64,000 bases of DNA from an uncultured Nitrospiraceae bacterium (GCA_963730935.1 CAVSTP010000002.1:160001-224000), one strand, 5' to 3'; positions 18,216 through 36,227 are shown, numbered from the stretch's first letter. Notes: a model not told the origin generated them from the letters alone. Translations and numbers: made by a program.

Positions 18216-19409
18216 ATGACCAGATGCTGCGGAGCAGGTTGTCTGATGGCGATTGCGTGGCTCACCTTGGGACTATCGTCCCCCACGTCGGGAGAGCCCT
18301 TTCTTCCCCAACAAGACACGCAAGTGCTAGAACGCCTCAGCGTCAAGTCATCTGATCCGGTGGCGCGAGAACTCAGGACCTTACGCGCGCGGCTATCGAG
18401 AAATCCACAAGACGTTGATGTCGCAGTATCGCTTGCGACCAAATTTGCTGCACAAGCGCGGTCGCTAGGAGATCCGAGATTTCTCGGTCAAGCGCAGGCC
18501 ATCTTGGCTCCTTGGTGGAACCTTCCGACACCGCCGCCCTCGGTTCTACTATTGCGAGCCACGATCCGCCAGAATGCGCATGAGTTCGATCTCGCGCTCG
18601 CCGATCTCGATGAGGTCTTGAGCCGGCAACCGACAAACGCTCAGGCGTGGCTGACGAAAGCGTCGATCCTTCAAGTTCAAGGACGATACGAGGAGGCTCG
18701 AGGTGCATGCCAGCCCTTGCTTCGATCGACCGGCCGGCATGTCGCACTCACCTGTTTGAGCGATATCGCCGGTCTGAGGGGCCAAGCCGCTCTTAGCCGC
18801 GATGTGCTGACCACGAGTCTGAGTCGTCCAGACATCTCCGTAGAGGAACGACTTTGGATTCTGACCATCTTGGCGGAGGTGGCCGCTCGCACCGGAGATC
18901 AACGAAATGCTGAAAGGTATTTTGAGGAAGCGCGAAGCATCGGCATGAAAGACCACTATCTCTTAGGGGCTTATGCCGATTTTCTACTCGATCAAGGCCG
19001 CGCGCAGGACGTCGTGGCGCTCCTGCAGCGCGATACGAGATCCGACGGATTGCTCTTACGTCTTGCGCTTGCCGAGCAGGCACTCCATGCACCCGCGTCA
19101 CAGGACCATACGGCCGAGCTTGCGGCCCGTTTTGCCGCCAGTCGTGAGCGAGGAACTCCTGTGCACTTGCGTGAAGAAGCGCGCTTCACTCTTGCGCTGC
19201 TGCAAGATTCACGGGCGGCGCTCCTCCTCGCCCAGAACAATTGGAAGATCCAAAAGGAACCTTCTGATGCCCGCCTGCTGCTCGAATGTGCCTGGGCAGC
19301 CGGTAACCGTCACGCAGCCAAACCTGTGCTCGAATGGCTCGACACGAACCATGTGGAAGGTGACAAGCTCCGACATCTGGCTGCACGGCTTCGAGAGGAG
19401 AGGCCGTAA
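18216..19409 (+). CDS. exported tetratricopeptide-repeat protein
   Basis: signal-like N-terminus; TPR helices (A..DLD.VL..QP.N..AW). Confidence 0.8.
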   Translation: MTRCCGAGCLMAIAWLTLGLSSPTSGEPFLPQQDTQVLERLSVKSSDPVARELRTLRARLSRNPQDVDVAVSLATKFAAQARSLGDPRFLGQAQAILAPWWNLPTPPPSVLLLRATIRQNAHEFDLALADLDEVLSRQPTNAQAWLTKASILQVQGRYEEARGACQPLLRSTGRHVALTCLSDIAGLRGQAALSRDVLTTSLSRPDISVEERLWILTILAEVAARTGDQRNAERYFEEARSIGMKDHYLLGAYADFLLDQGRAQDVVALLQRDTRSDGLLLRLALAEQALHAPASQDHTAELAARFAASRERGTPVHLREEARFTLALLQDSRAALLLAQNNWKIQKEPSDARLLLECAWAAGNRHAAKPVLEWLDTNHVEGDKLRHLAARLREERP

Positions 19410-20539
19410 TGCGCATCTTCCTCGTCATTGCGCTGCTTCTTATGAGCACGCCCGCCTGGGCTCATAAACCCAGCGACAGTTATCTCTCCCTCACTGTCCA
19501 TCAGGTTCGTGTGGAGGGTCGGTGGGACATCGCGCTGCGAGACTTGGACGACGCGATCGGACTGGACGGGGACGGGAATGGCGAGATCACATGGGGGGAG
19601 GTGCGATCCAGACACGACCAGATCGCTGCTTATGCACTCTCCCGCCTCACGCTTGCGTCAGGCGAGAGACGTTGCGCGACGAACGCCACCCGCCTGCTGA
19701 TCGACCATCACACGGACGGGGCCTACACGGTTCTCCTCTTCACAGCGACCTGTCCGGATCCAATAGAAGAGCTGCGCGCCGATTATCGGCTCTTGTTCGA
19801 TCTGGACGCTCAGCATAAAGGACTCCTGCGCCTAACTCATGGGTCTCATGCGTCCTTCACCACGAGCGCGATATTCAGCCAAGAGACCTCAGCTCAACGA
19901 TTCACGATCGGTGAAGGTTCACTGTGGCGTCAGGGTGGACAATACCTGCATGAAGGCATCTGGCACATCTGGCTAGGATTCGACCACCTCTTGTTTCTGC
20001 TCACACTCCTGTTGCCTGCAGTCCTCGTTCGAGTCGATCACCGCTGGCAAGCCATTGAAGATCTTTCATCCGCATCCTGGGAAGTGTTGCGCATTGTCAC
20101 GGCCTTTACCTTCGCACATTCTCTGACCTTGAGTCTCGCCACACTGGGAATCATGCAGTTGCCTTCACGACTCGTTGAATCAGCAATTGCGTCCTCGGTA
20201 ATTCTTGCTGGAGTGGCAAATCTGTATCCGGGGATCGCACAACGCCGTTGGGTGGTGGCATTCGCCTTTGGTCTCATCCACGGCTTTGGATTCGCCAGCG
20301 TGCTCTCAGATTTGGGATTGCCGCATGGCTCGTTGTTGGTCAGTCTTGTGAGTTTCAACGTCGGTGTTGAGATCGGCCAACTTGCGGTGGTAGTTCTGTT
20401 TCTTCCGCTAGCTCATGCCTTCCGCCGATCTTCGGCTTATCAGTTGATCGTCGTCAGAATTGGGTCTCTGGCAGTTATTGTCGTGGCGCTGCTATGGCTG
20501 GCTGAGCGGGCGTTCGACCTCAAACTTTTTCCGGTCTGA
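19409..20539 (+). CDS. HupE/UreJ family metal-transporter-like protein with N-terminal periplasmic domain
   Basis: AWA|HK, DGDGNGEITWGE, GIWHIWLGFDH, FTFAHSLTL, FGLIHGFGFA, FNVGVEIGQ. Confidence 0.88.
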   Translation: MRIFLVIALLLMSTPAWAHKPSDSYLSLTVHQVRVEGRWDIALRDLDDAIGLDGDGNGEITWGEVRSRHDQIAAYALSRLTLASGERRCATNATRLLIDHHTDGAYTVLLFTATCPDPIEELRADYRLLFDLDAQHKGLLRLTHGSHASFTTSAIFSQETSAQRFTIGEGSLWRQGGQYLHEGIWHIWLGFDHLLFLLTLLLPAVLVRVDHRWQAIEDLSSASWEVLRIVTAFTFAHSLTLSLATLGIMQLPSRLVESAIASSVILAGVANLYPGIAQRRWVVAFAFGLIHGFGFASVLSDLGLPHGSLLVSLVSFNVGVEIGQLAVVVLFLPLAHAFRRSSAYQLIVVRIGSLAVIVVALLWLAERAFDLKLFPV

Positions 20540-22042: not shown

Positions 22043-24553
22043 TCATAAATCTACATGCCGCAGACGAAGCGCGTTGGCAATGACGGAGACGGAGCTGAAG
22101 GTCATGGCAGCACTGGCAATCATGGGACTCAGCAGCACCCCCCACACCGGATACAGCGCGCCCGCCGCAAGAGGCACGCCAGCAAGATTGTAGACGAAGG
22201 CGAAAAAGAGATTCTGCCGGATGTTCTTCATGGTCGCCCGGCTGAGTCGGATGGCACGAACCAGCGCGCGCAGATCGCCTTTCACAAGCGTGATGCCCGC
22301 GCTTTCCATCGCAATGTCCGTTCCAGTCCCCATCGCAATCCCCACGTGGGCAAGAGCCAGCGCCGGCGCATCATTGATGCCGTCGCCTGCCATCGCGACC
22401 ACATGGCCTTGTGACTTGAGGTCCGCGACGATAGCGCCTTTTTTCTCCGGGAGCACCCCCGCATACAGGTCGGTGATCCCGACCTGTCGGGCGACGGCCT
22501 CTGCCGTTAGCTGGTGATCGCCCGTGACCATGACCAGCCGAATGCCCTGTTCTCTGAGTAGCCGGACGGCCTCAGGGGTCGTGGATTTCACCGGATCGGC
22601 CACACCGAGCAGTCCCGCAACCTTCCCATCCACGGCGATAAACACTGTCGTTTGTCCCTCCGCTCGCAAGCGCGCCGCTTCCTCTTCCAGCACGGCCAAG
22701 CCCGGATCGGCGATGTTCAGGCGTTCTCGAAGAAGCGTAGCGGTCCCCACTGCGACGGAATGTCCGTCGACGACACCGGTGACTCCATAGCCCGTGACCG
22801 AGCGAAATTCCTTGACCACTCCGGGCGTCGCCGCTCGCTGCTCGGCTTCAGCGATGACGGCAGAAGCAACCGGATGTTCACTCCGGCGCTCGAGACTGGC
22901 CGCGAGCCGCAACACTTCCGCGTCGCTCCACGGCGGCACGAAGCGAATGGAAACAAGCGCGGGTTTCCCTTCGGTGAGGGTACCCGTCTTGTCAAACACC
23001 AACGTGTCCACTTTGCCGAGCACCTCGAGGGCTTCCGCTTTATGGATCAGAACGCCGGCCGTCGCCCCCCGCCCCGTTCCCACCATGATGGACATGGGTG
23101 TTGCCAGTCCGAGCGCACAAGGGCAGGCAACAATCAGCACCGCCACCGCATTGACCAATGCATAGGCCAGCCGCGGTTCAGGCCCCCAGAGGCCCCACGC
23201 GATGGAAGTGAGGATCGCAACCGCAACGACCGCTGGGACAAAGTAGCCGGCCACACGGTCGGCAACCCGTTGGATGGGAGCACGGCTTCGCTGGGCGTCG
23301 CTTACCATTTGGACGATGCGGGCAAGCAAGGTGTCAGAGCCGACCCGTTCCGCCTGCATGAGGATGCTCCCGGCGCCGTTAATCGTACCGCCCGTCACCG
23401 GAGCGCCGGGGGATTTTGCCACCGGCAATGACTCTCCGGTGACCATCGATTCATCGACCACCGTCACACCTTCCGCGACAACGCCGTCCACAGGCACGCG
23501 TTCGCCCGGACGAACGCGTAGACGATCTCCGACCCTCACCTCGTCGAGCGACACGTCCGTCTCCTTGCCGCCCTCCCCGACACGCCTGGCCGTTTTCGGC
23601 GCCAGGCGCAGCAGCGCTTTCATGGCAGAAGTCGTTTGGCCGCGCGCGCGTAATTCCAAGACCTGCCCCAGCAACACCAATACCGTGATGACAGCCGCGG
23701 CTTCGAAATAGACAGGAATGGAACCATCGGATGCATGGAACGAAACCGGCAAGAGGCCAGGCGCGATGGTGGCCAGGACGCTGTAGAGATAGGCGGCTCC
23801 GGTCCCGAGGCCGATCAGCGTGAACATGTTCGGCGCCCGGTGAACGATCGAGTTCCAGGCGCGTTCAAAGAACGGCCAGCCTCCCCAGAGCACGACCGGT
23901 GTGGCCAGCCACAATTGAATCCAGTTTTTCACCGGGCCGTTGAGGATCTGACGCGCCGGTATCATATCGGCCATCGCCAAGGTCATCACGAGGAGCGCGG
24001 GACCGAGGCTGATCCAAAAGCGCCTCGATATGTCCAGAAGTTCCGGATTCGGTCGCTCTTCCAACGTGACGATTTTAGGCTCCAGCGCCATGCCGCAGAT
24101 GGGACAAGCTCCTGGCTCGGTCGAAACGACCTCCGGATCCATCGGACAGATGTATTCCACTTTGGAGCCGGGGGAAACGGCCGTCGGTTTCGTGATGCGT
24201 TGCGCCGGCGGGATCAGAAACGCAGCGGGATCCTGGCGAAACTTGGCCAAACAGCCTGTTGAACAAAAGTAGTACGTCTTACCTTCGTGAACATAGGAGC
24301 CGGCGGCGCTTTCAGGCTGAACGGTCATTCCGCATACAGGATCGACCTGTGCGCCCTTAGTGGCAGGGCTGGGCGGCATCATCTGAATCGTGATCAGGCC
24401 CGAGCTTTTCGGTCGAAGCGCCCGCTCTGGATCAGCTTTGAACGTTTCGAGACAGGAGGCGGCGCAAAAGTAGTAGGTGACGCCTTGATATTCGTATTGC
24501 CCGGCAGCCGTCGCCGGATCGACGGTCATACCGCAGATAGGATCGATCGCCAT
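22043..24553 (-). CDS. copA: Cu(I)-translocating P1B-type ATPase with two YHS domains and an HMBD
   Basis: [39 protein letters not shown], MxxSS. Confidence 0.92.
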
Positions 24554-24693
24554 AGTAGGATCTCGGCCCTCCACTTGCTGCGGCCGCCCGTGGAGCGAAA
24601 CGTCTCGGCGCTTCGGGGTCGGGCGGGTGGAGAATGGTAGCCATTTTGACCATCCTCCAAGGCATCTTCTCCCGTCTCGTCACTGATCACTGT

Positions 24694-27270: not shown

Positions 27271-29622
27271 CTAGAACAGTCCCAGCGTCACACCACCGTA
27301 AATGGCTCGGCCGTACCCGGCAAAGAACGCCTGTTGCCCGGCCGCTTGCGCCGTGGTTTCCCCCGTGACCACCTGGCCTGACGCGGCATATTTCATGTTC
27401 GCGATGTTGTCCACTTGGAGATAGAACTTGGCAAAACGGAACCAGGAATTGTTCACCTCTACAGTCTTATGGACGTTCACCGTCCCGATGAAATATGAGG
27501 GAATCCCAAATGTATTATTGTTGTTCAAGAAGTAGCTGTTGAAGTAATTGCCTTCGACCCAGCCTCCCCATCCGGACGGTTGATGATCGTACTCTACCTT
27601 CAAGTTCAGAATATCGGTCGGCACGTTGGGCACGTTCTTTCCATCGCGCACCAAAAATCCTGCAGCGGTCCGGTCGGAAAAATTAATGTACTTGGCATCG
27701 ATATGCGTATAGGCTCCTGAGAAGCGCAATCCCGACAATGGACGCCAATCGTATCGCGCTTCGATTCCGCGGTACTGCGATGAGTCGGCATTGACCGAGG
27801 CCGTATTCGATCCGGAAATCGTCTGGGTGATGATTTCGTTCTTGAAGAACGTCCAAAACCCGACGAGTTCGACGATCAGATCCTTCGTCAGTCTCGATTC
27901 CGTGCCGATCTCATTATTCCAATTCTTCTGCGGCTTCAAATTGAAATTTGCCCCGGGGAGACCGGTGATCGGATCCCTCGTAAGATTGCCGAACGTCGGG
28001 ATAGCATATCCGGTCGAGCTCCTGATCCAATGCCGATAGCCTTCCGCCGGCTTCCATGTGAGTGATGCTTCAGGTGCCCAATTTGTGTAGTCGCGGGTCG
28101 CGCTGGGCCTCGACGCCACTGCGCCGGAATTGTCATAGTTGATGGTGTCAATGGTGAGTTGCGACTGCTCAAACCCAAGGCCTGCAGCCAGAATCCATTT
28201 TGGAACGAATTCCAGTTCCTCGCGAAAACGGCCTCCGATGTTATTGATTCTTCCCCGATTGTTCTGAAGCAACGTTCCTCTGGTTCCAAATCCGGTCGCC
28301 AGATTCTGGAACGTCTCTCCCTCCTGTTCCATATTATTCAGAAAGAAACCGACGTAACTTTTGAGCGGCATCTCTCCGAGTCGACCATCGTGTCGCAAGT
28401 CCGTGTAGGTCTTGTAGTTGGGATTGACGTTATCGGTGATTTGGGAGAAATATTGGTTGATGTCTTTCACGTCATAGTCGGCTTCGATCGTGAGCACCGT
28501 ATTGGCATTGAGTTGACGCTCGTACATGCCTCCGACGATCGTACGCCGATCGATACGCTGCTGATGGAGTAGTTCGGCATTCGCGCAGGCGGGATTGTAG
28601 GTTCCGGGTGTACAGGGCGTCTGGGCACCGCCGGCCTGGCGATCGTCCGCATTGAATTGCGCCTCCGTCAATCTGGTCGGTACGCGCGTATCCAACCAGT
28701 TTGAAATCGCCTTGAAATAAAAACTCTGCTTGTCGTCGATGGTGAACCGCAAATTGAAGTTCAAGGTCTGAGTATTGTAGTCGCTGTTTTTGATGAATCC
28801 ATCTTCGGCCACATTGCTGGCGAACAAGGATACATCAAGGTTTTGGTATTGCTTCCCTACGGCGAAGGCCTGCTTGAAAAAGCCATACGATCCTCCGGAC
28901 AGGAAGGTTTCAAAGCCGTTGATGTCGCTGCCGCGCCTGGTCCTGAAGTGGACCATGCCCCCGAGCGCGTAATTGTCGTACAGCGACGACGATGCCCCCC
29001 GGATAACCTCTGTGCTTCTCATGAACCAGGGGTCTTGCATGTCGAGTCGCGACAACCCGTCGGATTGCGTCTGGCTGAACCCGTCTTCGTAGATTTTGAT
29101 ATCACGAACCGCGAATGTGGTCTTCGCCCCCTGCCCACGGATCATGATGCTGAAGTCGCGCGGGCCGTTCGCCTGGCGAAGCGCGATGCCAGGTAGCGAC
29201 TGAAGTGACTCCTGCATCGTACGAGTCGGCTGGGAATCTGTCTCCGCCGGCACAGTGGCATCCAACGAGATTCCCTCGGGTCGTTTTTGCAGTCGGTTGC
29301 TGACGATGCTCATGTCGGCAAGGTCATAATGCGGTACTGCTGTTGCTTGAGCCTCCCCCGTCGCTTCAGGTTCGGCGTGTTCCTTGATGATAGCGGGGCG
29401 TTCGGCTTCCGGTTTGGCGCTCTCCTTTTGCTGCTGAATCTCGTCCAGTTCTTTCAATATATCGTTGAGCTGCTCGCGCAATTCCTGTTCGCGTGATGAG
29501 CCGGTCGGACCGGCGGACGGCGCATCCTGGGCGAACGCCTCGCCTCCTCCGGCCATGAATGTCGTCAGGCATCCGATCAAAATTGCGCATCTCAGCGCGA
29601 CGGCACCTATACGTTCAAACAT
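27271..29622 (-). CDS. TonB-dependent outer-membrane receptor
   Basis: AAGGAG RBS before ATG 29622; signal peptide; plug IRGQG, RGASSSLY; C-terminal GGVTLGLF. Confidence 0.9.
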   Translation of the reverse strand: MFERIGAVALRCAILIGCLTTFMAGGGEAFAQDAPSAGPTGSSREQELREQLNDILKELDEIQQQKESAKPEAERPAIIKEHAEPEATGEAQATAVPHYDLADMSIVSNRLQKRPEGISLDATVPAETDSQPTRTMQESLQSLPGIALRQANGPRDFSIMIRGQGAKTTFAVRDIKIYEDGFSQTQSDGLSRLDMQDPWFMRSTEVIRGASSSLYDNYALGGMVHFRTRRGSDINGFETFLSGGSYGFFKQAFAVGKQYQNLDVSLFASNVAEDGFIKNSDYNTQTLNFNLRFTIDDKQSFYFKAISNWLDTRVPTRLTEAQFNADDRQAGGAQTPCTPGTYNPACANAELLHQQRIDRRTIVGGMYERQLNANTVLTIEADYDVKDINQYFSQITDNVNPNYKTYTDLRHDGRLGEMPLKSYVGFFLNNMEQEGETFQNLATGFGTRGTLLQNNRGRINNIGGRFREELEFVPKWILAAGLGFEQSQLTIDTINYDNSGAVASRPSATRDYTNWAPEASLTWKPAEGYRHWIRSSTGYAIPTFGNLTRDPITGLPGANFNLKPQKNWNNEIGTESRLTKDLIVELVGFWTFFKNEIITQTISGSNTASVNADSSQYRGIEARYDWRPLSGLRFSGAYTHIDAKYINFSDRTAAGFLVRDGKNVPNVPTDILNLKVEYDHQPSGWGGWVEGNYFNSYFLNNNNTFGIPSYFIGTVNVHKTVEVNNSWFRFAKFYLQVDNIANMKYAASGQVVTGETTAQAAGQQAFFAGYGRAIYGGVTLGLF

Positions 29623-29652
29623 GATGCGGCTCCTTACGTCATGAACGACACG

Positions 29653-29692
29653 CGTCCACGGGCGCACTTATTGCCTTTGCGGACCGTGGACG
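29653..29692 (-). promoter_or_regulatory. hairpin between leader peptide 2 and the TBDR start
   Basis: CGTCCACGG ... CCGTGGACG perfect 9-bp stem plus inner CGCA/TGCG. Confidence 0.7.
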
Positions 29693-29722
29693 ATTTAGGA
29701 TGAATTTCGTTGGAGAAACGAG

Positions 29723-30025
29723 TCAGCGAGGAGGTCCGCGGGAATGTATCAGAGCGGCAAAGAGACGCGTCTGTGGTGCGGCGCTGTATAATCGCAGCAG
29801 AGCGACCACAGCAAAGACGACGCCAAGGGGAAGACCGGCATGAATGGTGATAGTGGGGTTGGCCTGGCAGGCCCAGGCACACAGCGCCGAGTGCGCTACG
29901 TGATCGGGGCTGTGGTGATGAGCCTGCTGTTCTGCATGTAGCAAGAGACAGCAAGAAGTGCCGATTGCCAGGACGGCATAGAGCACGACCATCCCAATGG
30001 CGAGTGGGGCAATCAGGCGTTTCAT
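29723..30025 (-). CDS. CutF/CruR-like (DUF2946-like) leader, putative ribosome-arrest peptide 2
   Basis: N-terminal hydrophobic signal, His-rich tract, LCAWAC, C-terminal RGPPR. Confidence 0.78.
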   Translation of the reverse strand: MKRLIAPLAIGMVVLYAVLAIGTSCCLLLHAEQQAHHHSPDHVAHSALCAWACQANPTITIHAGLPLGVVFAVVALLRLYSAAPQTRLFAALIHSRGPPR

Positions 30026-30594
30026 GGTTGCCGGTTGAGGACGTGTCGGACGAGGGCGATCGATTCTTGGCTGTCCCAGGCTCGGGGCCCCACGGCCCGG
30101 CCGAGCGCGTGACCGTTCTGATCGATCAACACGGTGGTCGGGAGTCCACGCACCGTGAAGAGGCGAGAGAGTTCCTGGTCTTCATCGAAGAGCACGGGCA
30201 GCTTGATGCCGAGATGATCGAGAAACTGCTTGATCCCTTTCGGATGGATGTCCGCGGTGACGGTCACCACGAGAACCTGTCCAGGGTCGAATTGCGACTG
30301 TAGCCGTGCGAGCGAGGGCATCTCCTCCTTGCACGGCCCGCACCAGGTGGCCCAAAAATTGAGCAACACGACCTTGCCTGCCAAATGCTGCGAACCTAGC
30401 GTATCGCCGTCGAGCGCCTTGAGATCAAATGCCACCGCCGGATCGCCTGCAGACGTTCGTGTCACACCGAGCGCCCCGAAGGGATCGCCTGCTGCGGAAG
30501 GGGCACCGTACAGCGGAGCGCCGGAACCCGACAGCCCCACACATGCGGCAACGACCACCGCACAAGCCATGCGCCGTAGTCTGCTACGGTCCAT
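30022..30594 (-). CDS. TlpA/ResA-like thiol-disulfide oxidoreductase
   Basis: LNFWATWCGPCKEEMP, VRGLPTT. Confidence 0.9.
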   Translation of the reverse strand: MDRSRLRRMACAVVVAACVGLSGSGAPLYGAPSAAGDPFGALGVTRTSAGDPAVAFDLKALDGDTLGSQHLAGKVVLLNFWATWCGPCKEEMPSLARLQSQFDPGQVLVVTVTADIHPKGIKQFLDHLGIKLPVLFDEDQELSRLFTVRGLPTTVLIDQNGHALGRAVGPRAWDSQESIALVRHVLNRQP

Positions 30595-31891
30595 TGGGTC
30601 GGATCTCCGCTTCTGCCACCGAGACTCCTGGCAACTGCATCGTCTGAACCACCAGACGATGAGCTGGCATCGCATGCTCTTTCCACCCCATCACCACCGT
30701 CCCCTGCTGATTGACGGCAATCGTCGGCGTTTGTCCGTTTTTTTCGTTGAGTTTTCGTGGCGCGCTAAATGACTGTCCTCGGTCGAGTGAATGGCTCATC
30801 ACGACTTCGCGGCGAACCGGTGATTGTTCCTCCCAGATCACGATGACTCGTCCCTCCGGATCGACGGCCATCTGAGGATGGTCGGGGAAAGTGCCCTTTG
30901 AACGGTTCAGCTGCCTTTTTTCGGAGAACCTCTTCCCTTGATCGTCAGAATAGGCCAGATAGATCGCGGGCGTCTCGTCGGCGCCTTCCGTATACCAAAC
31001 GACATAGAGACGTCCTGACTGGTCGACACCCAACGACGCTGGCCGGTGCGGGCAAGCCTGATACACCCATCGGTCATTGCCGACGACGACTGGCGGCAAA
31101 AACGTCTGTCCGCCGTCCGTCGATCGTGCGACCACGGTCTCACGGATGTTGCCGTCGAAAATTTTGCGCCAGGCGACATAGACGACCCCGTCGGCAGACA
31201 TGGCAATCGAAGTCCGGCAGCAGACACAGGTATTGTCATCAACTTTAAAGTTCTTCGTGATCGTTCGGCCCTGGTCTGTCGATCTTGCCACGAAGGTGCC
31301 GGGCTCCTTCTTCCCTTCCCGGCCGTCGATCCAGGCGAAATGCAGCACGCCGTCCGGAGCAACATTGAGCGCATCGAAAGTGTGCTGAATCACCTGGTCA
31401 TCGTCGTTGACCAATGTCGATGGGCCGAACGAGCGTCCGCCGTCAGTGGACCGACTCAGTCTCAACTCTCCCGAAAATGGCTTGTCGGGAGTCATCTTCG
31501 GATGGGTCATCGACCAGGTGACAAAGACGTCCTGGCCCCGGACGATGAGGGCCGGAGCCTCCTGGCGGTAATACGGACTTTCACCAGGCTGATTGACGGC
31601 GACTGGAGCGCCCAGCGGGCCGCCCGGCGCTTTCGATCGGGCGAACAGTATGGTGCGCGTGTCCTTGTCCTCTTCGACCCAAGCAGCCGCAATCATGCCT
31701 TCATCGTCGATCTGGACGGAGGGACCCACCACACCTTTTACATTATGTACCGTCACATATTTAGGTCCGAGTGCGAGAGAAGATTCCGGGGACTCGGCCG
31801 AGCGCAGTTCCGTCGACCACCCAACGGCAAGGGCAACGGCCACCGTGCACGCCCAGGACAGACGGTGTATTTTGTGTGATGGCTTGCTCAC
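30584..31891 (-). CDS. exported BNR/Asp-box (sialidase-fold) beta-propeller protein
   Basis: five S-x-D-x-G-x-[ST] Asp boxes; CVCC and ACPH motifs. Confidence 0.8.
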   Translation of the reverse strand: MSKPSHKIHRLSWACTVAVALAVGWSTELRSAESPESSLALGPKYVTVHNVKGVVGPSVQIDDEGMIAAAWVEEDKDTRTILFARSKAPGGPLGAPVAVNQPGESPYYRQEAPALIVRGQDVFVTWSMTHPKMTPDKPFSGELRLSRSTDGGRSFGPSTLVNDDDQVIQHTFDALNVAPDGVLHFAWIDGREGKKEPGTFVARSTDQGRTITKNFKVDDNTCVCCRTSIAMSADGVVYVAWRKIFDGNIRETVVARSTDGGQTFLPPVVVGNDRWVYQACPHRPASLGVDQSGRLYVVWYTEGADETPAIYLAYSDDQGKRFSEKRQLNRSKGTFPDHPQMAVDPEGRVIVIWEEQSPVRREVVMSHSLDRGQSFSAPRKLNEKNGQTPTIAVNQQGTVVMGWKEHAMPAHRLVVQTMQLPGVSVAEAEIRPNGP

Positions 31892-31906
31892 GGCATCCCC
31901 GCCCTT

Positions 31907-32923
31907 TTAATTCGCCAGGCTGTACACGATCGGAAGGCTCACGACGATCTCGGGTTTTCCGATAGCATGCTTCATATGCAGCGGGCACGCGAGTTTCACT
32001 GCTTCAATTGCGGCCGCATCTAGGATCTGATGGCCAGAACTTTTTTGAACGGAGACTTCGGCCAGATGGCCGTCGGCTCGAATGACGGCTTTCAAAATGA
32101 CTTTACCTTCTTGGCCGTTCAAGCGGGCCGAACTGGGATATCGCTTCAGCTCAGCGACCCGTCTCCAGAGCGACTCGGCGAGCCAGCGATGATCTACCTT
32201 GACGTCGGGTCCAGAGGCTGCTTTTGCGGTCTGCATCGGCGCTTCCTGCGAAGCGGAATTGGGAGGCGACGACACAGCCGACGCCGACTCCGCTGAAGAA
32301 ACGAGAGATTCTGACGCCGATGGTTTCGCGGGAGTTTCCATCGGCCGAGATTCGACCGCTTCTGTCGGCTGCCTGTGCGCAATCACCGGATCCGCAGGCG
32401 GAACCGAATCAGTTTCCCTCGGGGCCGTCACTTGTTCGGGCTGTGGCTTGGGAGCCTCGACGATCTGCTGGTCAACCGACTCGGCGATCTTTTCTTGAAC
32501 AGGCTTCACCGGCGCTGTTACCGGTTCGGTGTTCGCCGGTGGCGCCGGCTCTTCTCGCTGTTCGACCGGCTTCGGCGGCGGCGCCTCAGGATGCACCATC
32601 TGCACGGTTTGCTGCGGCGCAACCCGCTGCACGACGGTGTCCGGTACCGATTCGACAGGCCGCGAAGCGGCCACACGTGGGGGCGGTTGTACTGTCGGGA
32701 TGACCTGCTTGACCGGGTCCGGCGCTGGCAGTGGGGTTGGCTCCGATGTTGAATCCGATTTCACCGGCTCAACCAAGGCCACGTCCCACTTAAAGGGTTC
32801 TTCTTGAAAAACGGGTCGGACTTGGGCGGCAAAGAGCATCGCCAGGACGACCACGATCCCGTGTAGTGTCAGCGAGACACCCCAAGCGGGAATGAGAAAA
32901 CGATTTTCGTTCACGCACGTCAT
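31907..32923 (-). CDS. tonB: TonB family energy transducer
   Basis: SLTLH TM, Pro-rich linker, YP..AR..G.EG.V...SSG..LD.AA. Confidence 0.88.
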   Translation of the reverse strand: MTCVNENRFLIPAWGVSLTLHGIVVVLAMLFAAQVRPVFQEEPFKWDVALVEPVKSDSTSEPTPLPAPDPVKQVIPTVQPPPRVAASRPVESVPDTVVQRVAPQQTVQMVHPEAPPPKPVEQREEPAPPANTEPVTAPVKPVQEKIAESVDQQIVEAPKPQPEQVTAPRETDSVPPADPVIAHRQPTEAVESRPMETPAKPSASESLVSSAESASAVSSPPNSASQEAPMQTAKAASGPDVKVDHRWLAESLWRRVAELKRYPSSARLNGQEGKVILKAVIRADGHLAEVSVQKSSGHQILDAAAIEAVKLACPLHMKHAIGKPEIVVSLPIVYSLAN

Positions 32924-33010
32924 GCGGAAAGCACCATCTAATAGAGATTGCCCAGACGAGGCCGGTCCTCTGAGAAAACCGGACCAGAACGCGTATACCG
33001 TCAGACTAGG

Positions 33011-33319
33011 CTAGGTAAGGGGGTTCGGTGGACCGCGGGAGACGGGTGAAGAAGAGAAGTTGCTCGAACAGACGGACGGTGCACAGAATTCGAGAAGCGA
33101 GACCGGCGAACGCTCGACCAGCGCAGGAGCGGTCACCGTATCGAGGACCTGACCCGCGGCGCACATCCAGTTGCAAAGCACGGTAGCATGCGCGGCTTTA
33201 TGATGATGCGCGTGGTGAGATTCGTGTGAAATGGATTGCGCCGAGGCGAGCCCTCCGACAGCGAGCAGGCAGAGGACTAATAAGAGGGCGAGCGATTGCT
33301 TCATCAACCGAGGCGTCAT
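33011..33319 (-). CDS. CutF/CruR-like (DUF2946-like) leader, putative ribosome-arrest peptide 1
   Basis: signal peptide (ASA|Q), HESHHAHHH, LCNWMC, C-terminal RGPP. Confidence 0.78.
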   Translation of the reverse strand: MTPRLMKQSLALLLVLCLLAVGGLASAQSISHESHHAHHHKAAHATVLCNWMCAAGQVLDTVTAPALVERSPVSLLEFCAPSVCSSNFSSSPVSRGPPNPLT

Positions 33320-33512
33320 AGCGTTCCGCACTACCAAGACCGGTCGAGACGATGGTACCCAACCGGATGGGAGAGCGTCAAGCATGAGGGATCGGAACCC
33401 ATTGTCTTCCTGATAGGATTCAGAAAATGTTTCCGGTATACTGCCTGAACTGGGTTGCCGCCACCCCGGCATCCTCTCCATAACAAAGATCCGGAGCAAT
33501 CCCGAACGCACG

Positions 33513-36227
33513 ATGCTGACACAACTTCTGAATCTTATTTTCGGCAGCAAGAACGACCGTGAAATCAAGGCCTTGATGCCAATCGTCCAGCGCATCAACG
33601 CCCTGGAACCGGAGCTGACTCCGCTGTCCGATCACGCCCTGGCCGACAAAACGCAGGCCTTCAAGAAGCGCTTGGCTGTCGACGAAACCCTTGACGATAT
33701 TCTTCCTGAAGCGTTCGCGGTCTGTCGGGAGATGTCCCGCCGAAAGCTCAACATGCGGCATTTCGACGTGCAGCTGATCGGCGGAATGATCTTGCACAAG
33801 GGCCGGATCTCCGAAATGAAGACCGGCGAAGGCAAAACGCTCGTCGCGACGTTGCCGATCTATCTCAACGCCCTCGAGGGCAAAGGCGCCCATCTGGTCA
33901 CGGTCAACGACTACCTGGCTAAACGCGACGCACAGTGGATGGGGCAGCTCTACCATGCGCTCGGCCTCTCCACAGGCGTCATCCAGCATGATGCCTCGTT
34001 CATCTACGACCCGACGTACGATGCCGCCGACAAGCGGCTGCAGCATCTTCGCCCCTGCACCAGATTCGAGGCATACCGCGCCGACATTACGTACGGCACG
34101 AACAACGAATACGGGTTCGACTACCTTCGTGACAATCTCGTCGTGACGGCCTTGGATCAATGCGTGCAGCGCGAACTGAATTTCGGGATCGTGGACGAAG
34201 TGGATAGCATCCTGATCGACGAAGCACGGACGCCGCTGATCATTTCCGGCCCGACCGACCAGACGACGGACCTTTATTACCGCATCAATGCCATCATTCC
34301 GCAGCTCAAGCCGGAACACGACTACACGATAGAAGAGAAGACCAAGACCGCCGCGCTCACGGAAGAAGGCAATGTGCGCGTGGAAAAGCTATTGGGCGTC
34401 GACAATCTCTATGATGCCGACAACATGGATCTCGTGCACCACGTCGTGAAGGCCCTGCAGGCCTATGCGCTGTACAAGCGCGATGTGGACTATGTGGTCA
34501 AGGACGGGGAAGTGATCATCGTAGACGAATTCACCGGGCGATTGATGCCCGGACGTCGATGGAGCGACGGCTTGCACCAGGCGGTTGAAGCCAAAGAGGG
34601 CGTCAAAATCGCCAACGAGAATCAGACGCTGGCCTCGGTGACCTTCCAGAACTATTTCCGCATGTACAAGAAACTGGGCGGCATGACCGGCACGGCCGAC
34701 ACCGAGGCGGCGGAATTCGCAAAGATCTACAACCTTGACGTGAACGTCGTCCCGACAAACCGGAAAATGATCCGGCTGGACTATGCCGACGTCGTGTACC
34801 GCACGGAGAAGGAAAAATTCGCCGCGATCGTCGAAGAGATCAAGGACTGTCACCAACGGGGACAGCCGGTACTGGTCGGCACGATCTCCATCGAGAAATC
34901 GGAAAAAATTGCCGGCATGCTCAACCGCAACGGCATCAAACACAACGTGCTCAACGCAAAACAGCACGAACGGGAAGCCGAGATCGTCGCGCAGGCCGGC
35001 CGCAAGGGCGCCGTGACGATCGCGACGAACATGGCGGGACGCGGGACGGACATCCTTTTAGGCGGCAATGCCGACTTCATGTTCAAGCAGGTCCTCTATC
35101 GTGAGGAAGACTTGCCGGACGAGCGGAAGCTTACCGTCTATGAAGAGATCCGCACGGATTGCGAGAAGAACAAGCAGGAGGTGCTCGGCCTCGGCGGACT
35201 CCATATCCTGGGAACGGAACGGCACGAGAGCCGCCGTATCGACAACCAGCTGCGAGGCCGTGCGGGCCGTCAGGGCGATCCGGGCTCGTCCCGGTTCTAT
35301 CTGTCGCTTGAAGACGACCTGATGCGCATCTTCGCTTCCGAACGTGTCTCGCAGCTCATGCTCAAGCTCGGCATGGAAGAAGGCATCCCGATCGAGCACG
35401 GGATGGTTACGCGCGCCATTGCCAACGCCCAAAAGAAGGTCGAAGCGCACAATTTTGAGATCCGCAAACAACTGCTTGAGTACGACGACGTCATGAACAA
35501 GCAGCGGGAAGTGATCTACCAGCACCGACGGGCTGTCCTGAGCGGCGAAAACCTGTCTGACGACCTGCGACAGATGATGGGAGCGATGGTCGAGTCCGCG
35601 CTCAATGTCTATTGCCCTGCCGAACAGTATCCGGAAGAGTGGGACATGAAAGGTCTCACCGAGATGATGCAGGGCCAGTTCGGGCTGGACATCACGCAAG
35701 GTAAGCAGGACAGCGGCGAATCGCTCAGGGACGTCGGCCGGGACGCGCTCCTTGAAGATCTGAAGGCCCAGGTCCAGGACGCCTGCGAACGGAAGGAAAA
35801 GGAACTGGGGCCGGAACTCATGCGGTTCCTGGAGAAGAATTTCATGCTGCAGGTGATCGACCATCATTGGAAGGACCATCTGCTGGCGATGGACCATTTA
35901 CGCGACGGCATCGGCCTGCGCGGGTACGGCCAGAAAGATCCGCTGATCGAATACAAACGCGAAGGATACGACCTATTCGCCGGCATGATGGAACGCATTA
36001 AGTCGGACACCATCGAACGGCTCTTCCTGGTGCAAGCCGTTCGTGAAGGTGAGCGCTCCGCCCCTCCGCCTCCCGTGATATCACGGCCGCAGCCGAAACT
36101 CACGTTGAATCGCGGGGAAGAACCGGTTTCCACGCAAACAGTCCATCGCAGTGACGATAAGGTGGGGCGCAATGACCCCTGTCCCTGTGGCTCCGGCAAA
36201 AAATATAAGAAGTGCCACGGGGCGTAG
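33513..36227 (+). CDS. secA: preprotein translocase ATPase SecA
   Basis: [49 protein letters not shown]. Confidence 0.98.

Follow-up and report, generated by a model that had tools for sequence, protein, structure and literature searches.

The closest described counterparts of the locus considered here are the copper-sensing leader switches CruR and CutF. CruR (Bp2923, DUF2946) is a small exported upstream ORF (uORF) that precedes bfrG, a TonB-dependent receptor (TBDR) gene of Bordetella pertussis, across a long intergenic region, and is reported to control it by Rho/rut transcription attenuation, with stalling on frequent codons (PMC9426467); when CruR is arrested, the P and A sites are described as occupied by its Pro codons (PMC12992588). 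Small uORFs ending in RAPP or RGPP have been surveyed ahead of TonB-related genes, and RGPP was the strongest arrest core tested, giving robust, EF-P-resistant arrest; the main text of that survey holds no mRNA-structure analysis (PMC12992588). Most RAPP-like motifs in ordinary proteins are reported to have stalled inefficiently (PMC10987492). The CutF leader of the cutF-cutO system of Rhodobacter capsulatus (10.1101/2022.11.11.516240 / PMC9973294, 10.1101/2025.02.05.636593) has a CxxxC motif and a proline-rich end; its copper-induced stall exposes a Shine-Dalgarno sequence (SD) hidden by an anti-SD within an intergenic stem-loop, and its target is a detoxifying oxidase (PMC9973294, 10.1101/2025.02.05.636593).

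A stalled ribosome likewise holds an SD-hiding stem open in SecM, MifM, CliM and uDF_RQH, which sense protein export rather than metal and whose stem-loops adjoin the stall site (PMC10987492, PMC4423224, PMC13183943); the stem of CliM takes in the 3' end of the leader (PMC13183943). For ApcA, ApdA and ApdP no SD-hiding hairpin is predicted, according to the available text (PMC7897499). Distal anti-SD sequences are reported to repress translation in vivo in B. subtilis (PMC12697547). In the literature searched no statement was found that RAPP or RGPP codons themselves act as an anti-SD; their figures (Roy Fig. S3, CutF Fig. S2, Fujiwara 2024 Fig. 5a) may show stems that include stall codons. 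Nor did these texts yield a study of such leaders in Nitrospira.

The locus

The window, by which is meant the whole stretch of DNA analysed, comprises 64,000 nt from an uncultured Nitrospiraceae bacterium (GCA_963730935.1 CAVSTP010000002.1:160001-224000). Genes on its minus strand run in the order Leader 1, tonB, BNR-repeat gene, TlpA-like thioredoxin gene, Leader 2, TBDR gene and TPR gene, with a DsbA-like gene and a CopA-like ATPase gene farther along:

33011-33319, minus strand: Leader 1, a His/CxxxC/RGPP uORF and paralog of Leader 2, heading the gene run ahead of tonB
31907-32923, minus strand: tonB, downstream of Leader 1
30584-31891, minus strand: BNR-repeat gene, in the same run as tonB
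30022-30675, minus strand: TlpA/ResA-like thioredoxin gene, its TGA overlapping the Leader 2 ATG
29723-30025, minus strand: Leader 2 uORF, 100 aa, its ATG overlapping the stop of the upstream thioredoxin-like gene
27271-29622, minus strand: TBDR gene, 783 aa, with Pfam plug and barrel domains
29620-29634, minus strand: TBDR SD (29634-29630), CCGC arm and ATG (29622-29620), the start agreeing with orthologs

Because the stop codon of the TlpA-like gene overlaps the start of Leader 2, the translation of the two is probably coupled, and an in-frame ATGA or GTGA occurs at the leader start in 23 of the 24 orthologs from the genus (the pattern alone being counted, whichever gene the TGA ends). The presence of two RGPP leaders in one run (33319-29723), the second start-stop coupled to tlpA, suggests two-stage attenuation. 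As to the substrate class of the TBDR, no NCBIfam model scored above its cut-off, and the OprC model was absent from the matches listed. Rfam families searched over 29400-33600 gave 0 matches down to E 1. Homologous loci that carry names are nearly all titled Nitrospira or Nitrospiraceae.

Near the run lie a HupE/UreJ-like gene (19409-20539) and the CopA-like ATPase gene (22043-24574), whose product has N-terminal YHS-like repeats. A weak sigma-70-like promoter match was seen at 33381-33352 (minus strand), about 30 nt upstream of Leader 1; the region holds four such matches against 2.6 expected.

Leader 2 and its family

Leader 2 has a hydrophobic N-terminus (mean hydropathy 2.55 over 15 residues, from which an export signal was judged), a His cluster, the CxxxC motif CAWAC and the C-terminus S-R-G-P-P-R-stop. 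RGPP occupies residues 96-99 of 100, with 42 residues between Cys53 and Arg96, and H37, C49, C53, S95, R96, P98 and P99 are invariant in 12/12 aligned leaders. Judged from sequence, this anatomy is that of a stalling uORF.

29867-29920, minus strand: His cluster to CAWAC, residues 36-53, a putative metal-sensing segment, presumed to bind metal

Among 12 candidate ORFs picked out of the genome as hydrophobic, with a Cys motif and RxPP at their end, only Leader 1 and Leader 2 have a hydrophobic N-terminus. Against Pfam PF11162 (DUF2946) Leader 2 scores 14.6 bits (E 0.057), below the gathering cut-off of 23.7, and it was not among the matches when the genome was searched with that model. Leader 2 is a real leader of the CruR/CutF kind, though it lies outside strict DUF2946 membership. 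A profile built on the leaders matched 74/75 genomes of the family, with up to 8 matches each, and 101/401 genomes in a sample of the phylum; a genus-level search gained no further ortholog.

With CruR the locus shares the small exported uORF, the TBDR downstream and the long intergenic region, together with a C>G bubble, a stall expected to switch the receptor on, and a C-terminal R-x-P-P some 45 residues past the Cys motif, the interval in Leader 2 being slightly shorter at 42 (PMC9426467). It differs in its invariant CxxxC with His cluster in place of CxxC, in its RGPP, in being internal to the run and start-stop coupled where CruR is the first gene, in rare CCU codons as opposed to frequent ones, in falling below the DUF2946 cut-off, and in a predicted SD-covering helix that is absent from the available CruR text (PMC9426467). 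Leader 2 also has the features by which CutF-like leaders have been filtered (PMC9973294), as it is shorter than 150 aa, carries PP within its last 15 residues, a Cys/His motif and, by hydropathy, an export signal. Unlike CutF, its predicted anti-SD consists of the stall codons, which are separated from the SD by about 100 nt, and its target is an importer. This difference may be smaller than it seems, given that a supplementary legend on CutF describes the last four cutF codons as kept with the stem-loop (10.1101/2022.11.11.516240 / 10.1101/2025.02.05.636593). The uORFs of the RAPP/RGPP survey match Leader 2 in size, C-terminal RGPP, export signal and TonB-related neighbour (PMC12992588). The monitoring substrate that marks SecM and MifM has no counterpart here, since the gene downstream of Leader 2 encodes a TBDR.

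Paralogous leaders stand before a variety of genes. Ten of them (L237, L239, L252, L253, L255, L258, L266-L268, L025) precede what we take to be a small excisionase-like helix-turn-helix gene, mostly 180-400 nt downstream. Eighteen leaders (among them L026-L029, L184, L196, L200, L202, L203, L213, L214, L218 and L219) precede an exported protein that starts with the conserved Cys-rich motif SCG.V.CFV and is possibly a metal-binding porin, and 13 (among them L031, L205-L207, L224, L225, L227 and L228) precede an exported GGRFCEYH-type protein, perhaps a heavy-metal-binding domain.

Pairing of the RGPP codons with the Shine-Dalgarno sequence

The sequence-only reading of the window had proposed that the RGPP codons are themselves the anti-SD of the TBDR gene, that two nested helices bring the partners together, and that a ribosome stalled on RGPP frees the ribosome binding site (RBS). 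The elements that bear on this proposal are:

29729-29740, minus strand: RGPP codons CGC GGA CCU CCU, a putative arrest site (by analogy with PMC12992588) and predicted anti-SD
29707-29721, minus strand: local 5-bp UCGUU/AACGA hairpin after the stop codon, poorly conserved
29653-29692, minus strand: central intergenic hairpin of 9 bp + 4 bp, present in the free and masked states
29757-29768, minus strand: backup pyrimidine-rich anti-SD, covering the SD in folding when the footprint alone is masked

The RGPP-coding GCGG-AC-CUCCU (29739-29729) is complementary to AGGAG-CCGC (29634-29626), which lies 7 nt ahead of the TBDR ATG, and these coordinates proved exact on the minus strand. In folding, the nine pairs occur in both the minimum free energy (MFE) and the centroid structure in 5/5 folding windows (p 0.70-1.0), and the perfect 9-bp stem nested between the two sites (29692-29684/29661-29653) forms as proposed (p 0.87-1.0). 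The nested AACGA/UCGUU helix does not: pairing of its distal UCGUU (29648-29644) stays at p<=0.01 whether the RNA is free or masked in any of 4 ribosome positions, and the AACGA segment (29711-29707) forms a local helix with the UCGUU (29721-29717) just past the stop codon (p 0.72-0.86). Across 8 close homologs the central pair is retained in 2/8 for the distal helix and in 3/8 for the local one. Two of the 13 pairs of the central hairpin are changed on both sides in 8 homologs, a score reached by 46 of 500 shuffles. Lacking a U-tract, this hairpin is not an intrinsic terminator, and none was found in the Leader 2-TBDR intergenic region.

When Gly, Pro and Pro were recoded synonymously, only 3 of the 64 codings gave P(SD:RGPP)>0.5, the native one included, and all three were CCU-CCU; shuffling of the intergenic region of the window lowered the pairing from 0.77 to 0.31. 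A single pairing of this kind is not rare in itself, since 16% of 170 AGGAG genes of the same genome (170 of 219 used as controls) have their SD paired >60 nt upstream at p>0.5.

Masking by a stalled ribosome

The predicted OFF state of the window is not tight and is weaker than that of a typical gene: opening the SD costs 2.5 kcal/mol, or 4.0 in a shorter folding window, against a median of 3.2 in the 170 control genes. That a stalled ribosome would free the RBS was borne out in part. When all sequence upstream, as far as +15 or +18 relative to the P site, is masked, the cost of SD opening drops from 2.5 to 1.1 or 0.75 kcal/mol, respectively; with the footprint alone masked, however, the backup anti-SD (29768-29757) re-covers the SD, which is then unpaired at 0.02-0.10 and costs 3.0 kcal/mol to open. 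The cost of opening the whole -18..+6 region falls only from 7.9 to 7.2 kcal/mol, and the switch predicted for the window is shallow.

Among 62 orthologs masking of the stall region lowers the mean SD-opening cost from 5.0 to 3.35 kcal/mol (a drop of about 1.7), which reaches the control level, whereas the same masking changes it by 0.02 kcal/mol in 150 control genes. The drop exceeds 1 kcal/mol in 36/62 orthologs and 11/19 strong-SD paralog pairs, compared with 15% of the 150 controls. These 19 paralogous leader-gene pairs, picked because their SD is strong and close, show a mean shift of 2.6 kcal/mol, with RxPP as the SD partner in 6/19.

Conservation among orthologs

From 180 loci 176 leaders were obtained, of which 142 are unique and 127 stand ahead of this receptor; 116 of these had an assignable start and were reduced at 85% identity to 63 representatives, three starts being set by hand. 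The set of 62 leaves out one locus, L015 (G022:C208), for its long insertion. Its intergenic region of 231 nt contains stacked inverted repeats resembling a REP/MITE insertion, with the SD and leader intact. Kin are counted as independent throughout, so that the ortholog statistics overstate.

Several of these statistics favour SD masking by the leader end. The SD is paired >60 nt upstream in 37/62 orthologs as against 16% of the 170 controls; the mean SD-partner profile over 63 orthologs has its highest peak on the Pro-Pro codons; native codons pair with the SD at 0.23 and synonymous recodings at 0.09; and the distance from the Arg codon to the ATG is 110-140 nt in 59/63. The claim that the RGPP codons are the anti-SD switch stands in one respect and falls short in another. 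The codons would lie under the stalled ribosome, to judge from CruR and the RAPP peptides, in which the two Pro codons occupy the P and A sites, but the SD has the RxPP codons as its main partner in just 15/63 orthologs (the ribosome footprint in 20/63), the dominant-partner value for the RGPP codons varies with the folding window, and cognate specificity is absent. Shuffling of the intergenic region across orthologs barely alters the pairing (0.26 vs 0.22).

Cognate co-evolution was not seen in leader swaps among 48 orthologs (the set leaves out 14 N. defluvii-like sequences and L015): chimeras equal natives (0.28 vs 0.28), and duplexes gain no strength from being cognate when compared with permutations (p 0.90). 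The swaps give no positive sign of co-evolution, and the lack of cognate specificity is partly expected because the core of the SD is fixed by its pairing with 16S rRNA.

The RGPP:SD helix is 97% paired in 8 close homologs, yet 7/9 of its pairs never vary and are therefore uninformative. Within the window's own clade, CCU-CCU is found in 8/10 members, 6/10 have 6-9 contiguous pairs, and the Ala/Gly wobble position pairs with its facing base in 8/10, by five pair types (permutations averaging 4.2; p 0.003, for 1 of 14 positions tested and among kin; p 0.09 over 49). A single consensus helix for the whole family was rejected: RNAalifold finds it in the 8 close homologs and weakly in 10 mid-range ones (-2.3 kcal/mol), and did not recover it in 36 N. 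defluvii-like sequences, where two other intergenic hairpins are conserved instead. The anti-SD is best viewed as a loose C/U-rich zone centred on the Pro-Pro codons and not as one conserved helix.

In the alignment of the 36 N. defluvii-like loci (A4), a long conserved intergenic hairpin shows several compensatory changes, and a conserved UUCC/CUCC directly after the stop codon could be an alternative anti-SD.

The RGPP codons of Leader 1 (33037-32960, minus strand; likewise in L030, L181, L189 and L190) look like the 5' arm of a hairpin in the intergenic region and could therefore rival that arm in pairing with the 3' arm; the competing fold is the MFE structure in 3/17 orthologs.

Codon choice, Rho and competing explanations

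The first Pro codon of the motif is CCU in 18/24 orthologs from the genus, against 25% genome-wide and 3/24 for a control Pro in the same leader. As proof of selection for an anti-SD this bias is ruled out by paralog controls: CCU is found in 30/49 orthologs vs 62/100 paralogous leaders, and in paralogs whose next start is distant (20/32) or whose SD is weak (26/39). The contrast at the second Pro (29/49 vs 29/100) is gone once the next base is matched (22/37 vs 11/21). The bias is thus not tied to SD pairing, and the sequence-only reading had also omitted the Rho/rut mechanism of CruR, the closest known system. The leader end is indeed C-rich and G-poor:

29703-29780, minus strand: C>G bubble that spans the end of the leader and the 20 nt of intergenic sequence next to it, a candidate rut site

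C minus G is 0.21 in this 78-nt stretch, with a maximum of 0.23 that, among 2261 gene ends, belongs to the top 3.4%, and with the RGPP codons excluded the bubble still ranks in the top 3%. Together with the rho gene, which is present in the genome, and the lack of an intrinsic terminator, this is the CruR signature.

Control by Rho alone, a rut site being hidden by the stalled ribosome as in CruR and the SD pairing being a by-product, is possible but in our judgement somewhat unlikely. The pairing could be such a by-product because any C/U-rich stretch pairs on paper with a G/A-rich SD. The mechanism is established for CruR ahead of a TBDR (PMC9426467); the bubble exceeds the genome's 90th percentile in 51/63 orthologs and 44/46 paralogs, and does so in 40/63 and 41/46 when the RxPP codons are excluded; and CCU is equally favoured in Leader 1 (14/20), though pairing between its codons and the tonB RBS exceeds p 0.4 in just 2/17 (3/20 without an assignable start). 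By itself, however, Rho leaves unexplained why the second Pro codon ends in U rather than C (15/24 vs about 5 expected) and why the Ala/Gly wobble covaries at clade level, and even an anti-SD that arose as a by-product should physically repress translation (PMC12697547). At the other extreme, the RGPP codons alone could be a selected, conserved anti-SD in a two-state helix in which Rho has no part. The window fold, the synonymous scan, the pairing retained in the 8 close homologs and the contiguous pairs in the window's clade agree with this, but the invariance of most pairs, the missing cognate specificity, the 15/63 count and the existence of a backup anti-SD make it improbable.

It is still less probable that pairing has no role at all, codon choice serving arrest by way of a P-site Pro tRNA that is preferred or slow, or the leader not being regulatory. 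CCG is avoided at the first Pro in every leader class (1/24, 0/20 and 12/100 vs about half genome-wide), as this explanation would have it, and the control Pro follows genome usage; yet the codons at which CruR stalls are frequent ones (PMC9426467), N. defluvii-like leaders leave the first-Pro wobble free (4/14 U), and the flanks are likewise C/U-rich. The explanation to which we give an even chance is that the C/U-rich leader end hides the SD and contributes to control, with or without Rho, as a stall-ON attenuator of the CruR/CutF kind. The computed codon:SD helix is real, and the system is a probable variant of the copper-sensing switches CruR and CutF; the helix may or may not be under selection, and the leader class itself was already known. 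A further suggestion, which we advance tentatively and with some doubt, is that the first-Pro CCU preference of the Nitrospiraceae exists because CCU-CC copies the 16S anti-SD, RxPP being a portable module that combines stalling with a long-range anti-SD and could act on nearly any gene placed after it, with no need of co-evolution. Such a two-code module would explain why leader swaps are harmless and why a single genome can have as many as 8 of the leaders, ahead of metal genes that are unrelated.

A model for the switch and its significance

If the C/U-rich leader end does hide the SD, the switch might work as follows. Ribosomes leaving tlpA would translate Leader 2 and come to a halt once the two Pro codons fill the P and A sites. 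Without a ribosome, the C/U-rich end, here mainly the RGPP codons, is predicted to reach past the central hairpin and pair with the SD, which lies about 100 nt farther downstream; the stalled ribosome, and any queue behind it, would remove this partner of the SD and so give the ON state. By analogy with CruR, metal at the His/CxxxC segment would end the stall and let the SD be re-covered, and Rho probably uses this C-rich stretch to stop transcription as well. Arrest of Leader 2, its release by metal and the direction of control are thus argued from the known systems, the OFF state in metal excess following the CruR analogy because the target is an importer. Copper is the likeliest signal by the same reasoning, with nickel, cobalt or zinc possible.

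Among RAPP/RGPP leaders CruR acts through Rho and CutF through an intergenic stem, but most of the family has no established route of control over the gene that follows; a long-range anti-SD within the stall codons would, if true, fill that gap. As the leader is nearly universal in the Nitrospiraceae (74/75 genomes), the uptake of metal by nitrifiers of global importance may be under its control.
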